Shown piece by piece: positions 22,532 to 55,225 of a DNA stretch of 64,000 nt (the stretch's first letter is position 1; each line of letters opens with the position of its first letter). Origin of the DNA: an uncultured Acidobacteriota bacterium. GTDB lineage: Bacteria > Acidobacteriota > Vicinamibacteria > Vicinamibacterales > 2-12-FULL-66-21. Both the position numbers and the translations under genes were made by a program. Where the stretch lies: the NCBI GenBank assembly GCA_963750915.1, contig CAVVSF010000007.1, positions 1,179,984 through 1,243,983 on the forward strand, read 5' to 3'. Under the pieces are notes generated by a model. That model worked only from the letters and a program-made list of their open reading frames with translations. It did not search any database and was not told where the DNA came from.

Positions 22532-22603
22532 CAGTTTCCAGCTGCCAGGTCGCAGTGTCCAGCCGCGCCGGCGCCAGTGGTCCACTGGTCACCCGCGGCT
22601 GGC
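22532..22603. repeat. Period-7 CAGnnnn array with a partial inverted arm
   Basis: CAGTTTC CAGCTGC CAGGTCG CAGTGTC CAGCCGC ... GCGGCTGG. Confidence 0.6.
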
Positions 22604-37091: not shown

Positions 37092-38369
37092 ATGCCGAAG
37101 TCCAAAGTCGCGATCCTGCGCACCTCGCCGGCTACGGTCCTGCGGGACTATCACGACCTGATGAACCTTGCCGGCTATCAGGACGTCATCGCCCGGGACG
37201 CCGATACGGCGCTCAAGGTCAACATCTCCTGGCACTTCTTCTTCCCGGCCACCTCGACGACCCCATGGCAGCTCGAGGGCGTGATCCGGGCGATGAAGCA
37301 GGACGGCTACGACCCCTCGCTGATCCACGCGTGCCACAACCGCACCGTCGTGATCGACGCCCACCTCGGCGAGCGTGAGAACAAGCAGGTCAACGTCGTC
37401 GACGCCCACAAGCTGCGCAACATCCACATCTACGAGACCGAAGAGTGGATCAACATCCGTGACGCCGTCGGCGACCTGACGCAGAAGTTCACCTGCCTGA
37501 ACGAGGTCTACCCGAAGGGCTTCATGATCCCGAAGCGCTTCATCGGCGAGAACATCATTCACCTGCCGACCGTGAAGACGCACGTCTTCACGACCACGAC
37601 CGGGGCGATGAAGAACGCGTTCGGGGGCCTGCTCAACGAGCATCGGCACTGGACGCATCCGGTGATCCACGAGACGCTCGTCGATCTGCTGATGATCCAG
37701 AAGAAGATTCACCGCGGCGTGTTCGCGGTGATGGACGGGACCTTCGCCGGCGACGGGCCCGGGCCGCGGTGCATGACGCCGCACGTCAAGAACGTGATTC
37801 TGGCGAGCGCCGACCAGGTCGCGATCGACGCTGTCGCCGCCAAGCTGATGGGCATCGACCCGCTCTCGATCAAGTTCATCCGCATGGCGCACGAGATGGG
37901 CCTCGGCTGCGGCGATCCGCGCGACATCGAGATCGTCGGCGATCCGTCTGCGGCGGCGGAGAACTGGCACTTCAACGGGCCGTTCAAGAAGATGACCTTC
38001 GCCTCGCGGATGCAGCACAAGATCTACTGGGGACCGATGAAGAAGCCGGTCGAATGGTCGCTCAAGACGGTACTCGCGCCCTGGGCCTACATCGCCAGCG
38101 TCCTCTACCACGACAGCTTCTGGTATCCGGTCAACGCGAAGAAGGCGATGCAGGAGGTCCTCGAGAGCCCCTGGGGCCGCCTGTTCAGGAACTGGGAGAC
38201 CGTAGCACCGGACGCGGCCGGCCTCGGCTATCCGGACGTCGGCGGCAACACCGCCACGATTGAGAAGACCGGCGCCAAGGCACTCGTCGAGTCGTTCGGC
38301 ATCCTCGGCACGTGCATCAAGGAAGCGCCGGAGTTCGCCGGCCGCCGCCGGCACCATAAGAAAGTGTGA
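37092..38369 (+). CDS. DUF362 domain protein (putative Fe-S)
   Basis: LKVN, TTP, HLPTVKTH...TTGAMKNAFG, MDG..GDGP, SADQVAIDAVAA..MG. Confidence 0.85.
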   Translation: MPKSKVAILRTSPATVLRDYHDLMNLAGYQDVIARDADTALKVNISWHFFFPATSTTPWQLEGVIRAMKQDGYDPSLIHACHNRTVVIDAHLGERENKQVNVVDAHKLRNIHIYETEEWINIRDAVGDLTQKFTCLNEVYPKGFMIPKRFIGENIIHLPTVKTHVFTTTTGAMKNAFGGLLNEHRHWTHPVIHETLVDLLMIQKKIHRGVFAVMDGTFAGDGPGPRCMTPHVKNVILASADQVAIDAVAAKLMGIDPLSIKFIRMAHEMGLGCGDPRDIEIVGDPSAAAENWHFNGPFKKMTFASRMQHKIYWGPMKKPVEWSLKTVLAPWAYIASVLYHDSFWYPVNAKKAMQEVLESPWGRLFRNWETVAPDAAGLGYPDVGGNTATIEKTGAKALVESFGILGTCIKEAPEFAGRRRHHKKV

Positions 38370-38429
38370 AGTTCGAAGGTCGAAGTTCGAAGGCAAGTTC
38401 GAACTTCGAATCTCGAACTTCGAAGTTGA
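38362..38429. repeat. Period-7 AAGTTCG array folded back on itself
   Basis: AAGTGTG AAGTTCG AAGGTCG AAGTTCG..AAGTTCG AACTTCG AATCTCG AACTTCG AAGTTGA. Confidence 0.85.
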
Positions 38430-38441
38430 GCCAAAGTCCAA

Positions 38442-39228
38442 ATGACTGATTTCAGCATCAAGAGCGACGCCGTCGACGTCGAGGAGATCATGCGACAGGT
38501 CCGGTCGCGGATCCGCGAGAAGCGCGGCGTCGACTACACCGAGGATGAGATTCGCGAGCTGGCGAGCGTCAAGCTGGAGCGGTTCCTCGATCCCAAGGGC
38601 GTTCGCTCGGATCTCCTCGATCAGTACCGCAAGCGCAAGGAGAGCTCGACGACGCCGAGGAACTATGCCTTCGAGGACACGACGCTCTACGACTCGAGCC
38701 GGCCGCTGCTGCGGTTCATCCGCAAGCTGCTCAATCCGATCCTCAAGCTGTTCTTCAACCCGGCGCCGATGGTCGAGGCGCTGCACATTCAGTCGCGGCT
38801 GAACGAGAACTACAACCAGGCCGAGGCGCTCTACTACGAGCTGATTCACAACCTGGTGCTCGAGACGACGCGGCTCAGCATCGAGGTCAAGAACCTGAAG
38901 ATGCGGGTCGAATCGATGTCGAGCCGGCTCGACTTCGACGAACGGCGGGCGCGGGCGCTCGAGGGCGTGGTTCAGGTACCGCCCCGGCGCCGTCGCGCCG
39001 TTGCCGCCGCCGGTCGGCGACCGTGAGCGGGAGCGGCCGGCGGGAACGAGCGCGATGGCGGGTTCCGAGGCGGAGCGACGCAACCGCCGGCGGCGCCGGC
39101 GTGGCCGCCGCCGTCCGGGCAACGGTGAACGGCAGGGAGCCGGCGACGCCGACAGCGGCGGCGGGCCCGAACACGACGGGCCGGATTCGTCCGGCGCTCC
39201 CGATTCGAACGGCCCATCGGAGTCGTGA
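38442..39228 (+). CDS. Coiled-coil hypothetical protein with an Arg-rich tail; 1-nt frameshift near 38976
   Basis: VDVEEIMRQVR..., amphipathic RFIRKLLNPILKLF. Removing one G joins ORF 39001..39228, whose TGA overlaps the next GTG. Confidence 0.75.
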
Positions 39229-40589
39229 AGCTCGCGGTCGTCGTTCAGCGTTACGGCGCCGACATCAACGGCGGCGCGGAGCAGCACGCCCGTTACATCG
39301 CCGAACGGCTGGCCCGGCACGCGACCGTCGAAGTCCTGACGACCTGCGCCCGCGACTACGTGACCTGGCGCAACGAGCTGCCGCCGGGCAGCGAGTCGAT
39401 CAACGGCATCACCGTCCGGCGCTTTCCGGTCTCGCGCGAACGCCAGCCGGCCGACTTCGGCCGGCGCTCGCACCGGGTGTTCGAGCACGCGCATTCGATC
39501 GAGGACGAGATCGCGTGGCTCGACAGCGAGGGCCCGACGAGCCCGGCACTGATCGCACACCTGCGGCAGGCGGGCAGCAGCTACGACTACGTCTTCCTTT
39601 TCAGCTATCGCTATTACCACGCCTGGCATGGCGCGCGGCTGCTGCCGGGCAAGGCGATCCTGGTGCCGACGGCGGAGCGGGACCCGGCCGTGGGTCTGTC
39701 GATCTTCGGGCCGACGTTCCGTGGCGTCCGCGGAATCATGTACAACTCGCACGAGGAGCGGGCGATGATTCAGGCGGCGGCGCGCAACCAGGCGGTCCCT
39801 GGCGTCGTCGTCGGCGTCGGCTCCGAGGTGCCCGGACGCACCGACCCCGAACGCTTTCGCCGCAAGCACAACCTCCGCCGGCCGTTCGCGATTTACATCG
39901 GCCGGATCGACACCAACAAGGGCTGCGGCGAGCTCTTCGACTACTTCCAGCGCTACGCCGTGTCGTTTCCGCGCGGGCTCGATCTCGTGCTGATCGGCAA
40001 GGCGATCATCCCGGTCCCGTCGAGCCATCGCATTCACCACCTCGGCTTTCTCAACGACCAGGACAAGTTCGACGCGCTGGCGGCGGCCGACGTGCTGATC
40101 ATGCCGTCGTATTTCGAGAGCCTGTCGATGGTCGCGCTCGAGGCATGGGCGCTCGGCCGGCCGGTGCTCGCCAACGGCCGCTGCGACGTGCTCAAGGGGC
40201 AGTGTATCCGCAGCGGCGCCGGCCTCTACTACGAGAGCTATCCGGAGTTTGCCGAGACGCTCTACTCGCTCGAGTCGAACGGCCCGCTGCACGCGCGGCT
40301 CGGCCGCAACGGCTCCGAGTACTTTGCCCGGCACTACGCCTGGCCGGTGATCGAGGGCAAGTATCTCGACATGCTGCGCCGGCTCGAGCGCGAACCGGCG
40401 CCGGCGCCGGTCGAGCCGCTGCCGGGCTGGCTGGCGCGGCGGCGCCGCGACGTCCCCGCCGCCAGCGCGGTGCTGGCCGGCATCCCGTCCGGCGCCGTGA
40501 TCACCGCTGACCCCGTCCCCGCTGCCGCGCGCCGCGAGACCCCGGCACCGGCGGTCGCGGTCCCGAACGGCAGAGGCCGCCGCCGATGA
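39225..40589 (+). CDS. GT4 glycosyltransferase (type A)
   Basis: QRYG...GGAE, YIGRID.NKG, ESLSMVALE (EX7E). Confidence 0.92.
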   Translation: MKLAVVVQRYGADINGGAEQHARYIAERLARHATVEVLTTCARDYVTWRNELPPGSESINGITVRRFPVSRERQPADFGRRSHRVFEHAHSIEDEIAWLDSEGPTSPALIAHLRQAGSSYDYVFLFSYRYYHAWHGARLLPGKAILVPTAERDPAVGLSIFGPTFRGVRGIMYNSHEERAMIQAAARNQAVPGVVVGVGSEVPGRTDPERFRRKHNLRRPFAIYIGRIDTNKGCGELFDYFQRYAVSFPRGLDLVLIGKAIIPVPSSHRIHHLGFLNDQDKFDALAAADVLIMPSYFESLSMVALEAWALGRPVLANGRCDVLKGQCIRSGAGLYYESYPEFAETLYSLESNGPLHARLGRNGSEYFARHYAWPVIEGKYLDMLRRLEREPAPAPVEPLPGWLARRRRDVPAASAVLAGIPSGAVITADPVPAAARRETPAPAVAVPNGRGRRR

Positions 40590-41874
40590 CGGCGAGCGCG
40601 TCGCGCCGCGGCCGCATCCACCAGGTCCTGGCCACGCTCGGCTACGGCGATGCCATCGGCCACGAAGTCCTCGGCATCCAACGCGTGCTGCGCGGCGCCG
40701 GCTTCGCCTCCGAGATCTTCGTCGAGACCGCAGATCCGCGCCTCGAGGACCTGACCATCGACTATCGGGAGATGGTCGGCCAGATCGGGCCGGAAGACAT
40801 CCTCATTCACCACTTCTCGATCGGCTCGCGCGCGTCGCGCGTCGCCTACGCGCTGCCGGGCCGCATGGCCCTCGTCTATCACAACATCACGCCGCCGGAA
40901 TACTTCGTCGGGGTGCATCGCGACCTGGTCAAACTGTGCTTTCGCGGCCGCCGCGAGCTCACGGCCTACGTCGACCGCTGCGATCTCGCGCTCGGCGACT
41001 CGGAGTACAACCGCGAAGAGCTCGCCGGGCTCGGCTTCGAGCCGACGGGCGTCCTGCCCGTGGTCCCCGACTTCACCCACCTGAACCTCGAGCCGAACCG
41101 CATTCTCGCCGCCGGCTTCGACGACGGCTGGACCAACATCATGTTCGTCGGCCGGGTGATCCCGAACAAGAAGTTCGAGACCATCGTCCGCGCCTTCCAC
41201 GTCTACCGGACGCGCCACAACCCGCGGTCGCGGCTGCTGCTCGTCGGCTCCTACAGCGGCTTCGAACGCTACCTGACGATGCTGCACGGGCTGATCGCGA
41301 GGCTCGGGACGCCGGACGTCCACTTCCTCGGCCACGTCTCGAACGAGGAGCTGACGGCGCTCTACGACGTCGCCGACCTGTTCCTCTGCGCCAGCGCCCA
41401 CGAAGGCTTCTGCGTGCCGATCATCGAAGCCTTCTACAAGCGCATCCCGGTGCTCGCCTACGCCTCGACCGCCGTGCCGGCGACGATGGACGGCGGCGGA
41501 GTCCTCTACGACAGCACCGATCCGCAGGAGATCGCGCGGCTGATGGCGGCCGTGCTCGACGCACCGGAGATCGAGGACGCCGTCCTGCAGTCGCAGGACG
41601 CGGCGCTCGAGCGCTTGCTGACGCGCAACTTCGCCGGCACGCTTCTCGGTTTCGTCGACGCGTTGCAGCAGCAGCCGCCGCGGCCGGCGCCCGACGTCGC
41701 GTGGGACTTCTGGGCCCAGTTCGACCAGTTCGAGCGCCTCGAGGAGCTGCGCCAGTTCAGGCCGGCAGTGTTCCAGGCACTGCCGTCGAGTCAGAGCCAG
41801 GGCTCGGGGTCGGGGCTCGGGGCTCGACCCGGCGCCGAACCGGGGACCCCGAGCCCCGAGCCCCGCCGCAGTGA
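40586..41874 (+). CDS. GT4 glycosyltransferase (type B); 1-nt frameshift in the 3' heptamer array
   Basis: HQ...GDAIG, YHNITP, VGRVIPNK, EGFCVPIIE; adding 1 nt near 41810 puts the TGA at 41872-74 in frame. Confidence 0.88.
41801..41865. repeat. Period-7 GGCTCGG array plus inverted CCCCGAG arm, inside a CDS 3' end
   Basis: GGCTCGG GGTCGG GGCTCGG GGCTCGA ... CCCCGAG CCCCGAG CCCCG. Confidence 0.8.
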
Positions 41875-42942
41875 TCATCAACCAGTGGGTCCCGGCCGCG
41901 CATCGCGGCGACGCGATCGGCGACAGCGCCAGGCGGGTGCGCGACGTCCTCCGCCGCCAGGGGCACACCTCCGACGTCTTCGCCCTGACGATCGACGATG
42001 ACCTTCGCGGCGACGTCCTGCCGTTCGCCGAGCCGGCGGCGCGGCGCGGCGACGTGACGATCTTCCACTTCGCGCTGCCCTCGCCGATGACTGAGGCCTT
42101 TGCCACGCTCGACGGCGCCCGCGTCCTCCAGTACCACAACATCACCCCGGCCTCGTTCTTCGCACCGTACGCGCCGGGGCTGTTTCGCCTCGCGGCGGTG
42201 GGTCGGCAGGAGCTGGCCGTCACTCCGCGGCAGGGTCGATCTCGCGCTCGGCGACTCGGAGTTCAACCGGCAGGAGCTCGAGGCCCTCGGGTTTGGCGCA
42301 ACCGGGGTGATGCCGATCGCGGTCAACACCGAACGCATTACCAGCGGCCCGCCGCGGCCGGCACTCGAAAAGATCCTCGGCGACGGCCTGATGAACATTC
42401 TGTTCGTCGGCCGGATCGTGCCGAACAAGAAGATCGAGGACCACATCCGCCTCGCCGAGATCTACAAGCGCTACGTCGACAGCCACTACCGCTTCATCTT
42501 CGTCGGCCGGACCGACGGGGTGCCGGCCTACTACGCCCAGGTCCGCGCCCTGGTCGCGGAACTGCGCATGCTGCCCGACCGTTTCTGGTTCACGGGCCCG
42601 GTGCCGGACGAGGATCTGGCCGCCTTCTACCGCTGGGCCGACGTCTACGTCTCGCTGAGCGAGCACGAAGGCTTCTGCGTCCCGCTGGTCGAGGCGATGG
42701 CGGCCGACGTGCCCGTCCTCGCCTACGCCGCCGGCGCGGTCCCCGAGACGCTCGGCGGCGCCGGCCTGCTCTTTTCGCCAAAGGATCTCGAAGTCGCCGC
42801 CGAGATGCTCGGCATGCTCGTATACGATCGTCCCCTGCGTCAGCGCATCCTCGCCGGCCAGCGTCGCCGGCTGGAGGATTTCGCGCCGGCGCGCCTGGAA
42901 GCGCGTTTGAGCGAAACGCTCGCCACATTGAGGCTCTCTTGA
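41871..42942 (+). CDS. GT4 glycosyltransferase (type B'); 1-nt frameshift near 42218
   Basis: IINQW...GDAIG and YHNITP in one frame; VGRIVPNK and EGFCVPLVE in ORF 42100..42942. Confidence 0.88.
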
Positions 42943-44204
42943 AGATCGCATTCATTGTCCAGCGCTACGGCGCCGAGATCCTGGGCGGCTCCGAGTATCA
43001 CTGCCGCCTGATCGCGGAGCGCCTCGCGCCCAGGCACCAGGTCGAGGTCCTGACGACCTGCGCCGCCGACTACATCTCGTGGAAGAACGACTACCCGGAA
43101 GGCACCGATCGCATCCGCGGCGTCACCGTGCGGCGCTTCGCCAACAGCCGGACGCGCGACATCCATGCCTTCAACCGCTATTCGGAGTGGATCTTCACCC
43201 ACGAGCACAGCCGCGAGGACGAGAGCGAGTGGCTGCGGCAGCAGGGACCGTGGTGCCCGGGGCTAATCGAGTACCTCGAGCGCAACCAGCACCAGTACGA
43301 CGTCCTGATCTTCTTCACCTATCTCTACGCGCCGACGGTGCTCGGCATGCGCATCGCGCCCCACAAGAGCATCCTCGTGCCGACGGCGCACGACGAGCCG
43401 GCGATCCATCTCGGGCTCTACAAGGAGTTCTTTTCCCTGCCGGCCGGCATCGCCTATAACACCGAGGTCGAGCGCCGCTTCATCACGACGCACTTCTCGA
43501 TCCGCGCCGTCGAGGAGCAGACGGTCGGCTGCGGCGTCGACCTGCCGTCGCCGCAACCGGCGCGCAAGGAGGGCGACGCGGCCGAGGACGATCACGACGA
43601 GAACGCCGCCGCGGCCGACGATTCCCCCAGCTTCCGGCCGCATCTCGCGCGCCGCGGCGCGATGTTCCGCCGCCGGCACCGCCTGCACGGACCGATCGCG
43701 CTCTACGGCGGCCGCATCGACCCCGGCAAGGGCTGCGAAGAGCTGGTGGAGTACTTCAGCACCTACGTCCAGGACGGCGGTGACGCGTCGCTCGTGCTGA
43801 TGGGGGTCAAGCTGATGCCGCTGCCGGAGGAGCCGTTCATCCGCTTCGCCGGCCGGTTGTCAGACCAGGAGCGGCTGCAGGCGCTGGAAGCCGCAACGGT
43901 CGTGATCGTGCCGTCGCCGTACGAAAGCCTGTCGCTGCTGGCGCTCGAATCGTTCGCCGTCGGCACGCCGGTCCTCGCCAACGCCCGCAGCGAGGTCCTC
44001 GTCGATCACTGCCACAAGAGCAACGCCGGCCTCTACTACGCCGACCGCGACGAGTTCACCGAATGCCTGCGGCTGCTGCTCGCCGACACCCACCTGCGCG
44101 AGCACATGGGCCGGAACGGCCGGCGCTACGTGCAGCAGAACTATCGCTGGGACGTGATTCTGCAGAAGTACGAGCAGATGTTTACGAGCGTGAGGAAGAA
44201 GTAA
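42939..44204 (+). CDS. GT4 glycosyltransferase (type A'), TTG start
   Basis: KIAFIVQRYG...GGSE, YGGRIDPGKG, ESLSLLALE; TTGA overlap with the previous gene. Confidence 0.9.
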   Translation: MKIAFIVQRYGAEILGGSEYHCRLIAERLAPRHQVEVLTTCAADYISWKNDYPEGTDRIRGVTVRRFANSRTRDIHAFNRYSEWIFTHEHSREDESEWLRQQGPWCPGLIEYLERNQHQYDVLIFFTYLYAPTVLGMRIAPHKSILVPTAHDEPAIHLGLYKEFFSLPAGIAYNTEVERRFITTHFSIRAVEEQTVGCGVDLPSPQPARKEGDAAEDDHDENAAAADDSPSFRPHLARRGAMFRRRHRLHGPIALYGGRIDPGKGCEELVEYFSTYVQDGGDASLVLMGVKLMPLPEEPFIRFAGRLSDQERLQALEAATVVIVPSPYESLSLLALESFAVGTPVLANARSEVLVDHCHKSNAGLYYADRDEFTECLRLLLADTHLREHMGRNGRRYVQQNYRWDVILQKYEQMFTSVRKK

Positions 44205-44210
44205 ACCCTA

Positions 44211-44398
44211 TTGCAGATTGAAGATTGAAGACTGCAGATTTGGCATTGTCGATTGAAGATTGAAGATTGACGATTGACGATTCCGAGCACTGACTCGGCG
44301 CCTGCCTATGCAGCCGAATTAACCCGAACCAAAAAATCGACAATCCGAAATCCCACAATTCCAATCTGCAATCTTCAGTATCTTCAATCTTCAATCTT

Positions 44399-44412
<14 letters not shown>
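44211..44412. repeat. Period-7 TTGAAGA array and inverted AATCTTC array
   Basis: About 10 units at 44211-44282 and a reverse-complement array at 44335-44412. Confidence 0.9.
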
Positions 44413-45823
<1,411 letters not shown>

Positions 45824-48799: not shown

Positions 48800-49002
48800 G
48801 CTCTCCCACCGAAAAGTCTCTATAACCCATTGCGTATCAATAACTTCAATGGGCCAATTGACGATCTTTTCCAACCATCTGGAAGGTGGATCCAAAGATT
48901 CGGAGAGCACGCGGACGTCGCGACGTGACTCGGACACGCGGGAACGACCGGCGAGGACGCGATCAGGTCCATACCGAACGTAAAGACTTGACCCTTTGCC
49001 GG

Positions 49003-52339: not shown

Positions 52340-53608
52340 ATGCAGGACGATGTCGTCGTGATGGTGCTGGCCGGCGGAGCCGGCGAGCGCCTGTATCCAT
52401 TGACGAAGGAACGGGCGAAGCCGGCTGTGTACTTCGGCGGACCGTACCGCATCATCGACTTCACGCTGAGCAACTGCATCAACTCGGGCCTGCGCAAGGT
52501 TTTCATCGCCCTGCAGTACAAGTCGCTCTCGCTCGGCCGCCACATCCGAATGGGCTGGAGCGTCGTCGCCGACGAGCTCGGCGAGTTCATCGAGATTCTC
52601 AGCCCGCAGAAACGCGTCGGCGAGCACTGGTATCTCGGCACCGCCGACGCGGTCTACCAGAATCTCTACTCGATCGTGCGCGAGGATCCGCGGCACCTGC
52701 TCGTCCTTTCGGGCGATCACGTCTACAAGATGGACTACTCGCGGATGCTCAAAGTGCACCGCGATCGCGGCGCCGCCGCGACGATCGGCGTGATCGAGAT
52801 CCCGACGGAGGAGGCGCATCGCTTCGGCGTCATGCAGGTGGATGCCGAGGATCGCCTGGTCGGCTTCCTCGAGAAACCGAAAAACCTCGAACCGGGCGGC
52901 ACGGTCCTGGCGTCGATGGGCATCTACGCCTTCGACATGTCGTACCTGAAGCCGGCGCTCGAAGCCGACGCCCGGCGCTCGACGACGCACGACTTCGGCA
53001 AGGACATCATCCCGGAGCTGGTGTCGCGCGGGTCGGTGGTCGCGTATCGCTTCACCGACGAGAACAAGAAAGAGTCGAAGTACTGGCGCGACATCGGCAC
53101 GCTCGACGCCTACTACGCCGCCAACATGGACCTCTGCCAGGTCAACCCGGAGTTCAATCTCTACGACCCGGAGTGGCCGCTGCGCACGCAGCAGATCCAG
53201 GCACCGCCGGCGAAGTTCGTGTTCGCCGACGAGGGCCGCCGCTGCGGCCAGGCGCTCGATTCGATCATCTCGGCGGGATGCATCATCTCGGGCAGCCGCA
53301 TCGCCGGCAGCATTCTCTGTCCGAACGTGCGCGTCCACAGCTTCTGCTCGGTCGAGCAGAGCATTCTCATGCCGGGCGTCCGCGTCGGGCGCCATGCGAA
53401 GATCCGCCGCGCCATCATCGACCGCGACGTCTTCATCCCCCGCGGCGCGGTGATCGGCTACCACCCCGAGGAAGATCGCGAGCGCCACACCGTCACCGAG
53501 AGCGGCATCGTCGTCGTCACCACCGACGACGAGCCGTACGTCAGCAAGATCGAGGCGGCGGCGCTCGCCAACGAGCAGGAATTCGATCGCAGGGGCACCA
53601 GCATTTAG
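52340..53608 (+). CDS. glgC: Glucose-1-phosphate adenylyltransferase
   Basis: LAGG.G.RL.PLT..RAKPAV.FGG.YRIIDF, WY.GTADAV, GDHVYKMDY, DFGKDIIP. Confidence 0.97.
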   Translation: MQDDVVVMVLAGGAGERLYPLTKERAKPAVYFGGPYRIIDFTLSNCINSGLRKVFIALQYKSLSLGRHIRMGWSVVADELGEFIEILSPQKRVGEHWYLGTADAVYQNLYSIVREDPRHLLVLSGDHVYKMDYSRMLKVHRDRGAAATIGVIEIPTEEAHRFGVMQVDAEDRLVGFLEKPKNLEPGGTVLASMGIYAFDMSYLKPALEADARRSTTHDFGKDIIPELVSRGSVVAYRFTDENKKESKYWRDIGTLDAYYAANMDLCQVNPEFNLYDPEWPLRTQQIQAPPAKFVFADEGRRCGQALDSIISAGCIISGSRIAGSILCPNVRVHSFCSVEQSILMPGVRVGRHAKIRRAIIDRDVFIPRGAVIGYHPEEDRERHTVTESGIVVVTTDDEPYVSKIEAAALANEQEFDRRGTSI

Positions 53609-53612
53609 ACGG

Positions 53613-53855
53613 GCTTCGTGCGCGGTGCCTGGTGCCTGGTGCTCGAGTGCGAAGTGCGAGGGTGCGAAGTGCGAGGGTGCCGGGTGCGAGGGTGCTGCGT
53701 GCGGGGTGCGAGGTGCTGTGGTGCGAGGCAGCAGCCTCGCACCACCGCACCATCGCACCCCGCACCCTCGCACCCTCGCACCCTCGCACCCTCGCACCCA
53801 GGCACCCTCGCACCTCGCACATCGAGCACCAGGCACCAGGCACTACGCACGAAGC
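53613..53855. repeat. ~240-bp hairpin built from GTGC-core 7/8-mer units
   Basis: Left arm (GGTGCCT, GGTGCGAG)n; centre GTGGTGCGAGGC-AGCA-GCCTCGCACCAC; right arm (CTCGCACC, AGGCACC)n. Confidence 0.92.
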
Positions 53856-53911
53856 ACCTGAGAGCCGGTAGAATAGCGGTGTATCCCCCGCGACAACGTC
53901 ACGGCTCCTGA

Positions 53912-55225
<1,314 letters not shown>

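Follow-up and report, generated by a model that had tools for sequence, protein, structure and literature searches.

A heptamer fold-back between glgC and eno in an uncultured Acidobacteriota bacterium and its possible kinship with PF05635-bearing intervening sequences

Repetitive extragenic palindromic sequences (REPs) and bacterial interspersed mosaic elements (BIMEs) are intergenic palindromes at the 3' ends of genes, and where REP doublets forming hairpins (REPINs) occur with a REP-associated tyrosine transposase (RAYT), a single-copy gene is bracketed by a dispersed repeat family. MITEs (miniature inverted-repeat transposable elements) and the eukaryotic Foldback elements of Drosophila include short non-autonomous copies with terminal inverted repeats, the arms of Foldback being tandem arrays of variable length. 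Tandem heptamers are known from cyanobacteria as short tandemly repeated repetitive (STRR) sequences (also cited in PMC4692102). Here we set beside such systems a long hairpin of GTGC-core heptamers and octamers between the genes glgC and eno, at positions 53613-53856 of a 64,000-nt stretch of DNA ("the window") from an uncultured Acidobacteriota bacterium of the order Vicinamibacterales (assembly GCA_963750915.1, contig CAVVSF010000007.1, positions 1,179,984 to 1,243,983, forward strand).

Two further systems bear on this element. PF05635 is the family of the four-helix-bundle "23S rRNA intervening-sequence protein" (IVP, S23p, Avd-like), and Avd, the accessory protein of diversity-generating retroelements, is a relative of it. 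Avd is a pentameric helper of templated DNA synthesis that binds nucleic acid and polymerase. In Coxiella, according to the available text of Warrier et al. (2016, PMC4990558), the 23S intervening sequence (IVS) carries an S23p open reading frame (ORF) inside a 28-bp terminal stem; the stem holds two or three strain-variable GACAGAT heptamers, with the RNase III site at the first repeat, and the authors view the IVS as a selfish element excised by RNase III. For Xanthomonas, the accessible part of Rehm et al. (2015, PMC4692102) reports 70 and 75 heptamer array pairs in convergent orientation in Xcc and Xac. The heptamers of Xanthomonas and Nostoc are there described as noncoding, near ORF ends and rare between divergent genes, with arrays at the same gene pairs in related species that vary in length and sequence, and an excess of heptamers is reported for Nostoc and other bacteria.

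Our preferred reading is that the glgC-eno hairpin is probably, though far from certainly, a gene-less GTGC-core member of a dispersed, selfish, IVS-like fold-back family, and that it forms an RNA hairpin behind glgC.

The glgC-eno hairpin and its family

The element is a near-perfect fold-back of about 243 nt made of GTGC-core 7/8-mers (53613-53856). Folded as a single strand, positions 53600-53870 give one hairpin of -245.6 kcal/mol, and none of 200 dinucleotide shuffles was as stable (mean -126.5, sd 5.0, z -23.8). Tandem Repeats Finder (TRF) calls four arrays in it: an outer array of GGTGCCT (2.7 copies, 53624-53642), an inner array of mixed GTGCGA(G)G 7/8-mers (53646-53728), GCACCCTC in 11.5 copies (53731-53820, score 124) and GCACCAG in 4.7 copies (53826-53858). 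In the minimum-free-energy structure the G/T-rich 5' arm (53613..53729) consists of the conserved family terminus GCTTCGTGCGcGGTGCCTGGTGCCTGGTGCTCGA on the outside and GTGC-core 7/8-mers on the inside; the loop is AGCA (53730..53733), and the C/A-rich 3' arm (53734..53856) runs through the GCACCCTC and GCACCAG arrays to the terminus ...TCGAGCACCAGGCACCAGGCAC..GCACGAAGC. The upstream gene is glgC-like (52340..53608, plus strand; Pfam NTP_transferase and LbH_GLGC; its start is uncertain, the longest ORF running from 52136), and its TAG stop at 53606-53608 lies 4 nt before the hairpin. Downstream, the ATG of eno (enolase, 53921..55225, plus strand; Pfam Enolase_N/C) follows the hairpin end by 64 nt. 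The TRF arrays, the folding score and the Pfam identities thus uphold what a first-pass annotation, made from the sequence alone, had seen here, namely a hairpin of about 240 bp with GTGC-core units between glgC and eno. It had also called this hairpin the largest of its kind, which is true of the window but not of the genome, where at least seven further GTGC-core hairpins are about 250 nt long.

A covariance-model scan of the whole window against Rfam at gathering score returned rRNAs and tRNAs only, with no match at the hairpin, and a scan of the glgC-eno locus for sigma-70-like promoters and U-tract terminators predicted none. By eye, the hexamer TAGAAT (53869-53874), which lies 13 nt past the hairpin, with the eno start codon following 47 nt later, resembles a -10 box; the consensus scan found no promoter there.

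Assembled contigs from three soil DNA runs and one metatranscriptome were aligned to the locus. Contigs cover the flanks at 99-100% identity and none bridges the hairpin, so that its exact length is that given by the assembly alone. In two independent soil runs, contigs enter the outer arms from the flanking genes, X5 reaching 53632 and X1 spanning 53811-54090. The summed contig depth at 53755-53828 is very high in the soil and rhizosphere runs X1, X2, X5 and X15, the metatranscriptome included, and its source is similar repeats elsewhere; repeats of the GCACCCTC type therefore seem abundant in soil communities, and the depth is no sign of expression of the glgC-eno locus.

The window belongs to a soil genome (G000) of 6.15 Mb in 12 contigs, with a G+C content of 67.5% and a completeness of 95.6%; the relatives of its enolase likewise place it in the Vicinamibacterales of Acidobacteriota. 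Used as a query, the hairpin matches seven other sites in G000 at 75-80% identity over about 250 nt, which makes at least eight GTGC-core copies in all. Common to the eight is a terminal stretch of about 45-60 nt, cGTGCttcGTGCggGGTGCCTGGTGCCTGGTGCTCGAnGTGCGA... on the left and ...TCGCACnTCGAGCACCAGGCACCAGGCACC..GCACgAAGCACg on the right, and the interior varies while GTGC is kept every 7-8 nt. Other unit families have conserved parts of their own: an inner stem CAGGCAAGAGC/GCTCTTGCCTG in the GGCTCAG family and a flanking hairpin CAGGCTGCTGAAG...GCAGCCTGC in the AAGGCAG family. In the GATTGMA family the outer units are regular and the inner ones degenerate. About ten or more major families, drawn from a limited set of units, populate the genome. 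Since the members of a family share termini or other non-array parts, they are related by descent and have been copied to new sites, rather than having grown independently from random seeds. The sequence of the units is accordingly not free, contrary to what had first been thought, since the arrays group into families whose ends are conserved.

A subset of elements, across unit families and in both G000 and a congener, G012, has in common a central module, about 45 nt long and roughly of the form AAGAGCATTCAGATCnCAGtCG-nnn-GACTgnGATCTGAATGCTCTT (examples: G000 C7:825301-825420 and G012 sample 48812-48933). The motif GCGACT occurs in 12 of 110 loops and 7 of 330 control segments, and AAGAGC in 18 of 110 and 12 of 330, respectively.

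The families are part of a genome-wide system of period-7 fold-backs. Among tandem arrays with at least four copies, period 7 is the commonest non-triplet period (570 arrays, against 210 of period 6, 98 of period 8 and 72 of period 9). Merging of the period-7 arrays with at least three copies leaves 713, which reduce to 116 canonical units; the top four units account for 329 of them. Reverse-complement units, allowing one mismatch, are found in 141 of the 212 array pairs within 400 bp, as opposed to about 9% of random pairs (n = 20000). Local alignment detects an inverted partner no more than 400 bp away for 362 of the 713 arrays, and for 18 of 713 in a reversed-sequence control. The fold-back loci number about 194, and TRF calls at least two arms in 160 of these; the median span is 113 nt and the median folding energy -78 kcal/mol. 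In general they begin with a G/purine-rich tandem array whose units measure 7-8 nt and close with its reverse complement, and what lies between is short or unique; because the arms are reverse complements, transcripts of either strand can fold into a long, near-perfect hairpin.

Fold-backs are concentrated directly behind stop codons. Gene context was taken from a home-made ORF picker based on codon usage (4711 genes, 84% coding), so that start positions are approximate. On this basis, 54 of the 393 gaps between convergent genes hold a fold-back, as do 107 of the 1748 tandem and 13 of the 667 divergent ones, and the remaining 20 of the 194 loci lie inside called genes; less than 10% of the sequence is coding in 316 of the 362 paired arrays. 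The distance from the upstream stop to the array has a median of 6 nt (142 of 185 fall within -10..+15), and in tandem contexts the median distance from the end of the array to the next start is 17 nt. Enrichment of period 7, inverted partners above chance and a position close to stops and starts, all of which the first-pass annotation had put forward for a genome-wide check, were therefore each recovered. The G- or purine-rich arm is the 5' one in 145 of 160 loci (20 families G-first, 7 C-first). This polarity is identical on both strands and is thus an intrinsic handedness, not an orientation relative to the gene.

PF05635 genes within fold-backs

A genome search for inverted arrays 150-4000 bp apart returned mostly separate hairpins at both ends of ordinary genes, and two short ORFs within single fold-backs that resembled four-helix-bundle proteins. 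Scanning the whole genome with PF05635 gave nine matches at eight loci. All eight are bracketed by inverted tandem arrays (alignment scores 36-99; reversed control 17-23), and the G-rich arm is on the left at every one. Each also has a different unit family: GGTTGTGC, GGCTCAG, the GTGC core, a 14-mer, CCAGTTY, GAAGTTC / GAAGGGC, AAGGCAG and ATTGAAG. The probability that eight fold-backs drawn at random would all belong to different families is 0.039, and of the seven largest gene-less families, six have a single IVP-bearing member each. As a control, 1142 other genes of 80-200 aa were scored in the same way at a threshold of 36, set after the data had been seen at the weakest IVP case of G000. 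Thirteen reached it and none of the thirteen had tandem-array arms, the matches being G+C-rich coding sequence or, in one case, a simple palindrome. The first-pass annotation had asked which genes are enriched inside arrays, and PF05635 (8/8 loci, compared with 0/1142 other small genes) is the answer.

The IVP-bearing elements are 501-827 nt long and, as the gene-less ones do, fill the space between the adjoining genes; in seven of eight the flanks left over measure -1 to 23 nt. The one of the GTGC family lies on contig C12 (C12:287763-288589). It has the same terminus as the window hairpin (79% mean column identity) and encodes a 162-aa ORF that matches PF05635 (2e-18), TIGR02436 ("four helix bundle protein") and PDB entry 2gsc, XCC0516 of Xanthomonas campestris (E 6e-11). 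The window hairpin has the stem and no ORF in its loop; the ORF of the family is in the C12 copy.

Together with a gene-less GTGC-core hairpin at C12:285723-285980, this C12 element brackets one ordinary gene (286073-287761), and many ordinary genes are bracketed at both ends by separate fold-backs of the same family. The PF05635 gene in the CCAGTTY fold-back at C7:464564-464882 matches the model in two overlapping pieces (1-62 and 51-106) and may be a frameshifted, decaying copy.

The association recurs in other genomes. When the best IVP locus of each of 29 other genomes of the order was scored, 23 were flanked by inverted arrays, mostly of period 7 or 14 and with many units (control scores at most 28). 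In other classes of the phylum, with G+C contents of 29-70%, 17 of 28 IVP loci were so flanked; about seven more score 30-35 with plainly heptameric arms, and for two the flanking sequence was too short to be scored. In other phyla, five genomes gave 9 of 20 loci: 3/3 in Verrucomicrobia, 4/6 in Polyangiaceae, with reversed polarity, 2/8 in Cyclobacteriaceae, 0/2 in Chryseolinea and 0/1, a borderline case, in Cytophagales. A speculative idea about polarity involves Rho, for which a C-rich arm would expose a loading site if it emerged first.

There are correspondences of unit sequence as well. Close IVPs carry the same unit or one that differs by a single step, as in the AGCTKCC clade (G002, G003, G007 and G012) and the GGCTCAG clade (G000, G001 and G010), and the arms around orthologous IVP genes of G003 and G007 are nearly identical. 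In G012, AGCTKCC brackets the best IVP and is also the unit of the second commonest gene-less family (12 + 5 arrays); the same-sized sample of G000 lacks this unit, and it is not among the 40 commonest units of the entire G000 genome. In G031, likewise, the AAGGCGT unit flanking the IVP matches an abundant gene-less family of that genome. For seven genomes of the order, a small and phylogenetically confounded set, the numbers of PF05635 matches and, in 400-kb samples, of period-7 arrays with at least four copies and of inverted-partner arrays were 0, 1 and 1 in both G034 and G039; 5, 8 and 2 in G035; 3, 28 and 6 in G031; 6, 34 and 35 in G019; 4, 59 and 66 in G012; and 8 (loci), 46 and 35 in G000.

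Published data point the same way. In a supplementary table, Rehm et al. (2015, PMC4692102) list a GGGAATC array of four copies lying across the annotated start codon of the gene for XCC0516, the crystallised homologue of S23p. Their table also has a GGGGATT array of 129 nt that is 55 nt upstream of Nostoc alr0549, a gene that a table of another paper annotates as a four-helix-bundle protein. Both placements are independent of our pipeline.

Turnover among relatives and other fold-backs of the window

The adjacency of glgC and eno is kept throughout the order, and the content of the gap between them changes from species to species. In the two nearest congeners, G006 and G012, the gap is 26-28 nt and has no hairpin. 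Seven other species of the genus have a CACGATG-type fold-back there, with a unit of about 9 nt: G003, G005, G008, G009 and G010, in which it is clear, and G004 and G007, in which it is weaker or degraded. The gaps of G002 (79 nt) and G011 (110 nt) are neither empty nor occupied by a CACGATG fold-back. Among the genus genomes compared, the GTGC-core element is found in this gap in G000 only.

A syntenic 400-kb block of G012 gave a similar result. Of its 34 fold-back loci, 25 can be placed in G000, where one of the segments (3135 nt) is not comparable. By classes assigned by eye from printed sequences, the other 24 sites are empty in about six cases (0-20 nt), hold a different family in about nine, hold the same superfamily in about five (for example, GGGTTCA in one species and GGGCTCA in the other) and contain non-array sequence in four. 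The picture is one of fast turnover in which the same gaps behind stop codons are filled repeatedly, each genome having its own repertoire of families. We also considered that a core conserved between orthologous sites might persist while the arms around it are rewritten. In 13 orthologous hairpin pairs of G012 and G000 the centres scored a mean of 9.7, no more alike than in non-orthologous pairs at 8.5 (permutation p 0.14), and the idea is rejected for now.

The window holds further fold-backs. A GAAGTTC array of 8.9 copies forms one at 38368..38427 (TRF; GAAGTTC family; z -7.0), overlapping the stop codon of a gene that ends at 38369 and ending 14 nt before the next start at 38442. Another, of GGGCTCG / CCCCGAG units in the CGGGGCT family, occupies 41800..41865 (TRF; z -3.5). 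It is either at the overlapping stop/start junction of ORFs 40936-41874 and 41871-44204 or within ORF 40586-42001, and under the two-ORF model the array would be translated as the C-terminal tail of the upstream protein. A third, with ATTGAAG x10.4 and CAATCTT x6.6, spans 44210..44410 (TRF; z -7.4) between convergent genes at 42939-44204 (plus strand) and 44399-45823 (minus strand). The first-pass annotation had described the same plan at four further loci; these three agree with it (z -3.5 to -7.4), and the fourth, a degenerate CCAGnnn region at 22532..22600, is weak, with no TRF array and a z of -2.1. Elsewhere in the window, Rfam models identify an rRNA operon on the minus strand (6231-11882) with 16S, two tRNAs, 23S (6571-9562) and 5S. 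The 23S match is 2992 nt long against a model of 2925 positions, so small insertions in it are possible.

Interpretation and comparison with described systems

An excess of heptamers is widely reported in bacteria and has been ascribed to slippage (cited in the available text of PMC4679880 and PMC4692102), and one can imagine that simple sequence repeat (SSR) dynamics suffice here: heptamers would grow in place, hairpins would be kept because they are useful behind stops, and IVP genes would merely tolerate such flanks, with neither dispersal nor a dedicated protein. A published proposal reportedly explains the period by a polymerase footprint of 7 nt. Fold-backs do show signs of slippage in that the two arms differ in length by a median of 8 nt and the arrays are internally degenerate, and some "empty" sites of G000 keep one unit-like motif such as AGCTGA. 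Growth in place does not account for non-repetitive termini of 45-60 nt common to eight loci and the IVP-bearing copy, for the dominance of a few families, for entire elements that occupy an orthologous gap in one species and are missing from it in another (gaps of 0-28 nt), or for IVP genes lying in fold-backs at all eight loci when no other small gene does. We consider SSR dynamics by themselves quite unlikely, in agreement with the first-pass annotation, which had held that simple slippage is not enough; the shared termini, the different or missing families at the same junction in congeners and the embedded PF05635 gene speak for this. A second deflationary account, an artefact of assembling or polishing long reads in repetitive DNA, takes its support from the failure of short-read contigs to bridge the hairpin. 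It is scarcely credible: more than 40 genomes that were assembled independently show this architecture, the arms at orthologous IVP genes of G003 and G007 are near-identical, and contigs X5 and X1 enter the outer arms from the flanking genes. Artefact had been named as a way in which the first-pass annotation could fail, and the dozens of independent assemblies do not bear it out.

The elements might instead serve the host as bidirectional terminators or insulators, with the sequence irrelevant and supplied by whatever repeat is common in the genome. U-less "I-shaped" terminators have been described for high-G+C bacteria; the ranking of convergent over tandem over divergent gaps fits, arrays begin directly after stop codons, and G012 and G000 have different families at the same junctions, as if the site needed a hairpin. 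In half of the tandem cases, however, the hairpin ends 17 nt or less before the next start, and a strong terminator there would silence the downstream gene. U-tracts are rare (of 160 hairpins, only 12 have TTTT within 12 nt downstream), no U-tract terminator is predicted at glgC-eno, about six orthologous sites are empty in the sister species, as is the 26-28-nt glgC-eno gap of two congeners, and the IVP genes are left unexplained. On balance we judge a terminator or insulator role to be an unlikely explanation of the elements. REP/BIME-type elements mobilised by a Y1 (IS200/IS605-like) RAYT would also be intergenic palindromic repeats at gene 3' ends, and G000 does have two PF01797 genes. Neither of these Y1 genes is flanked by arrays, one having none within 5 kb and the other a fold-back 2 kb off across another gene; the elements are tandem arrays of 60-250 nt, not single palindromes of 20-40 nt, and in all eight families with a gene-bearing copy it is an IVP gene that is bracketed and not a Y1 gene. 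The RAYT idea is therefore not supported, and we regard it as very improbable. Retro-mobility was rejected too, as a PF00078 (reverse transcriptase) profile search of G000, at its completeness of 95.6%, found no match. Neither a transposase nor a reverse transcriptase was associated with fold-backs at the PF01797 loci or in the PF00078 search of this genome.

Several observations weigh against our preference for a selfish, IVS-like family. The choice of threshold described above makes eight of eight true by construction, which is not so of the contrast with 0 of 1142 array-bracketed controls, and the relatives surveyed for IVP flanks do not count as independent samples. Within G000, the CGGGGCT family lacks an IVP-bearing member. 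G025, which is 100% complete, has no PF05635 match and yet shows GTGC-like arrays; in Bacteroidota only 2 of 11 IVP loci score, and the single Polyangiaceae genome of the sample has reversed arm polarity. Among gene-less copies, 25 of 110 loops match IVP regions, compared with 64 of 330 for control intergenic DNA, and for want of any excess similarity to IVP gene regions the idea that gene-less copies are internal-deletion derivatives was dropped. The metatranscriptome contigs (one run) neither bridge the glgC-eno locus nor end informatively in it. Folding energy shows no strand asymmetry among 89 tandem-context loci (sense more stable in 43, antisense in 45, equal in 1; Wilcoxon p 0.85), and there is thus no sign of selection on the RNA rather than the DNA. 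Finally, the Coxiella S23p is, in the available text of Warrier et al. (PMC4990558), probably not made and decaying.

With these points in mind we still prefer the selfish, IVS-like reading, and we infer both a spreading mechanism and a function. The elements would be selfish repeats that are copied to new sites behind stop codons and turn over quickly. Their arms would grow and shrink by slippage, with selection or template switching keeping them complementary, and gene-less copies would be non-autonomous partners of IVP-bearing ones, the relative of the window copy being the element on C12. Transcription of glgC would yield an RNA stem of about 120 bp, which might act as an RNase III substrate, a barrier to 3' exonucleases or a partial or U-less terminator between glgC and eno. 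A classical intrinsic terminator is disfavoured by the lack of room for a promoter in half of the tandem cases, the scarcity of U-tracts and the sister species without the element. We favour a role in RNA processing or stability, by analogy with the excision of rRNA IVSs (available text of PMC4990558) and with REP elements.

Our boldest reading concerns the IVP itself. PF05635 proteins may be the cognate trans-acting factors of the heptamer fold-backs, as RAYTs are for REPs, with each IVP gene sitting in a master copy and its protein recognising the arms of the family and promoting copying, array building or the maintenance of gene-less copies. The IVP would recognise the periodic arms as a DNA or RNA hairpin and may recruit a host polymerase or nuclease, as Avd recruits reverse transcriptase. 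One IVP per family, the matching of units within genomes and co-occurrence across genomes fit this reading; the decaying Coxiella S23p (as far as the available text of that paper goes), G025 and the weak signal in Bacteroidota stand against it. That the IVP, small and helical, lacks any catalytic motif and is not known to have catalytic activity counts against the reading as well. We therefore advance it tentatively, as possible rather than probable. The first-pass annotation had suspected a dedicated generating mechanism or a structure-reading protein; a concrete candidate for it has now emerged.

If the IVP link is real, two long-standing puzzles are joined: the excess of heptamers in bacteria (STRRs, the Xanthomonas arrays and the general excess) and the role of S23p and the 23S IVS proteins. 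The coincidence is highly specific in G000 and recurs in Acidobacteriota, Verrucomicrobia, Myxococcota, part of Bacteroidota and, by published tables, Xanthomonas and Nostoc, and it leads to a single testable hypothesis, that the IVP binds, builds, moves or processes fold-backs. Were this true, cyanobacterial STRRs, Xanthomonas GGGAATC arrays, rRNA IVSs and the Acidobacteriota hairpins would form one class of mobile element. The consequences are also practical. Some 194 hairpins of 60-250 nt per genome would affect operon expression and mRNA ends, fold-backs break short-read assemblies, and they evolve quickly enough to be used as strain markers.

Among described systems, the GGGAATC arrays of Xanthomonas and the GGGGA(T/C)T arrays of Nostoc are alike in being tandem noncoding heptamers in G-first fold-backs at ORF ends, with few in divergent gaps. 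The window element has the head-to-tail 7-nt units, intergenic position and over-representation of heptameric SSRs as well as the inverted arrays of the Xanthomonas type. The difference is that Xanthomonas and Nostoc have, in the accessible text, one unit type per organism, read as a G-quadruplex motif, whereas G000 has ten or more families with conserved termini, arms of up to about 120 nt and many units that by inspection are not of the G-quadruplex kind (GATTGAAG, GAAGTTC and CCAGTTG are among many families without a GGG run). The available text of Rehm et al. (PMC4692102) does not draw the S23p/IVP link, though its tables list arrays at XCC0516 and alr0549. The 23S IVSs of Coxiella, Leptospira and others resemble the IVP-bearing elements in having a PF05635-family ORF in the loop of a long inverted-repeat stem, with heptamers in the stem. 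They are located in helix 45 or 25 of 23S rRNA in one or a few copies, whereas the elements of G000, the glgC-eno hairpin included, lie between protein genes in about 194 copies, mostly without an ORF and with much longer arrays.

REP/BIME-RAYT systems share the dispersed 3'-end palindromes and the single-copy gene bracketed by a dispersed family; they differ in having a Y1 HUH transposase and palindromes of 20-40 nt in place of a four-helix-bundle protein and tandem arrays. Diversity-generating retroelements share the protein family through Avd, and G000 has neither a reverse transcriptase match nor template or variable repeats. Set against MITEs, the G000 elements have conserved inverted termini and parent-like copies that carry an IVP and not a transposase, and the loops of gene-less copies show no excess similarity to the interior of those parent-like copies. 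The lack of a transposase also separates them from Foldback, which is moreover eukaryotic. In the open-access literature we found no paper tying PF05635/S23p genes to dispersed heptamer fold-backs, a search that leaves aside subscription papers such as the original STRR, SSR survey and XCC0516 structure papers. The first-pass annotation had called the system undescribed, which goes too far, since inverted heptamer arrays near gene ends are known in Xanthomonas and heptamers are known in the stem of an S23p-bearing IVS (available text of PMC4692102 and PMC4990558, respectively). What we rate as new relative to these kinds is the presence of many co-resident families with conserved termini, arms of up to about 120 nt, about 194 copies and the systematic pairing of family and IVP, and there is a substantial chance that they represent a new class of protein-associated repeat element.

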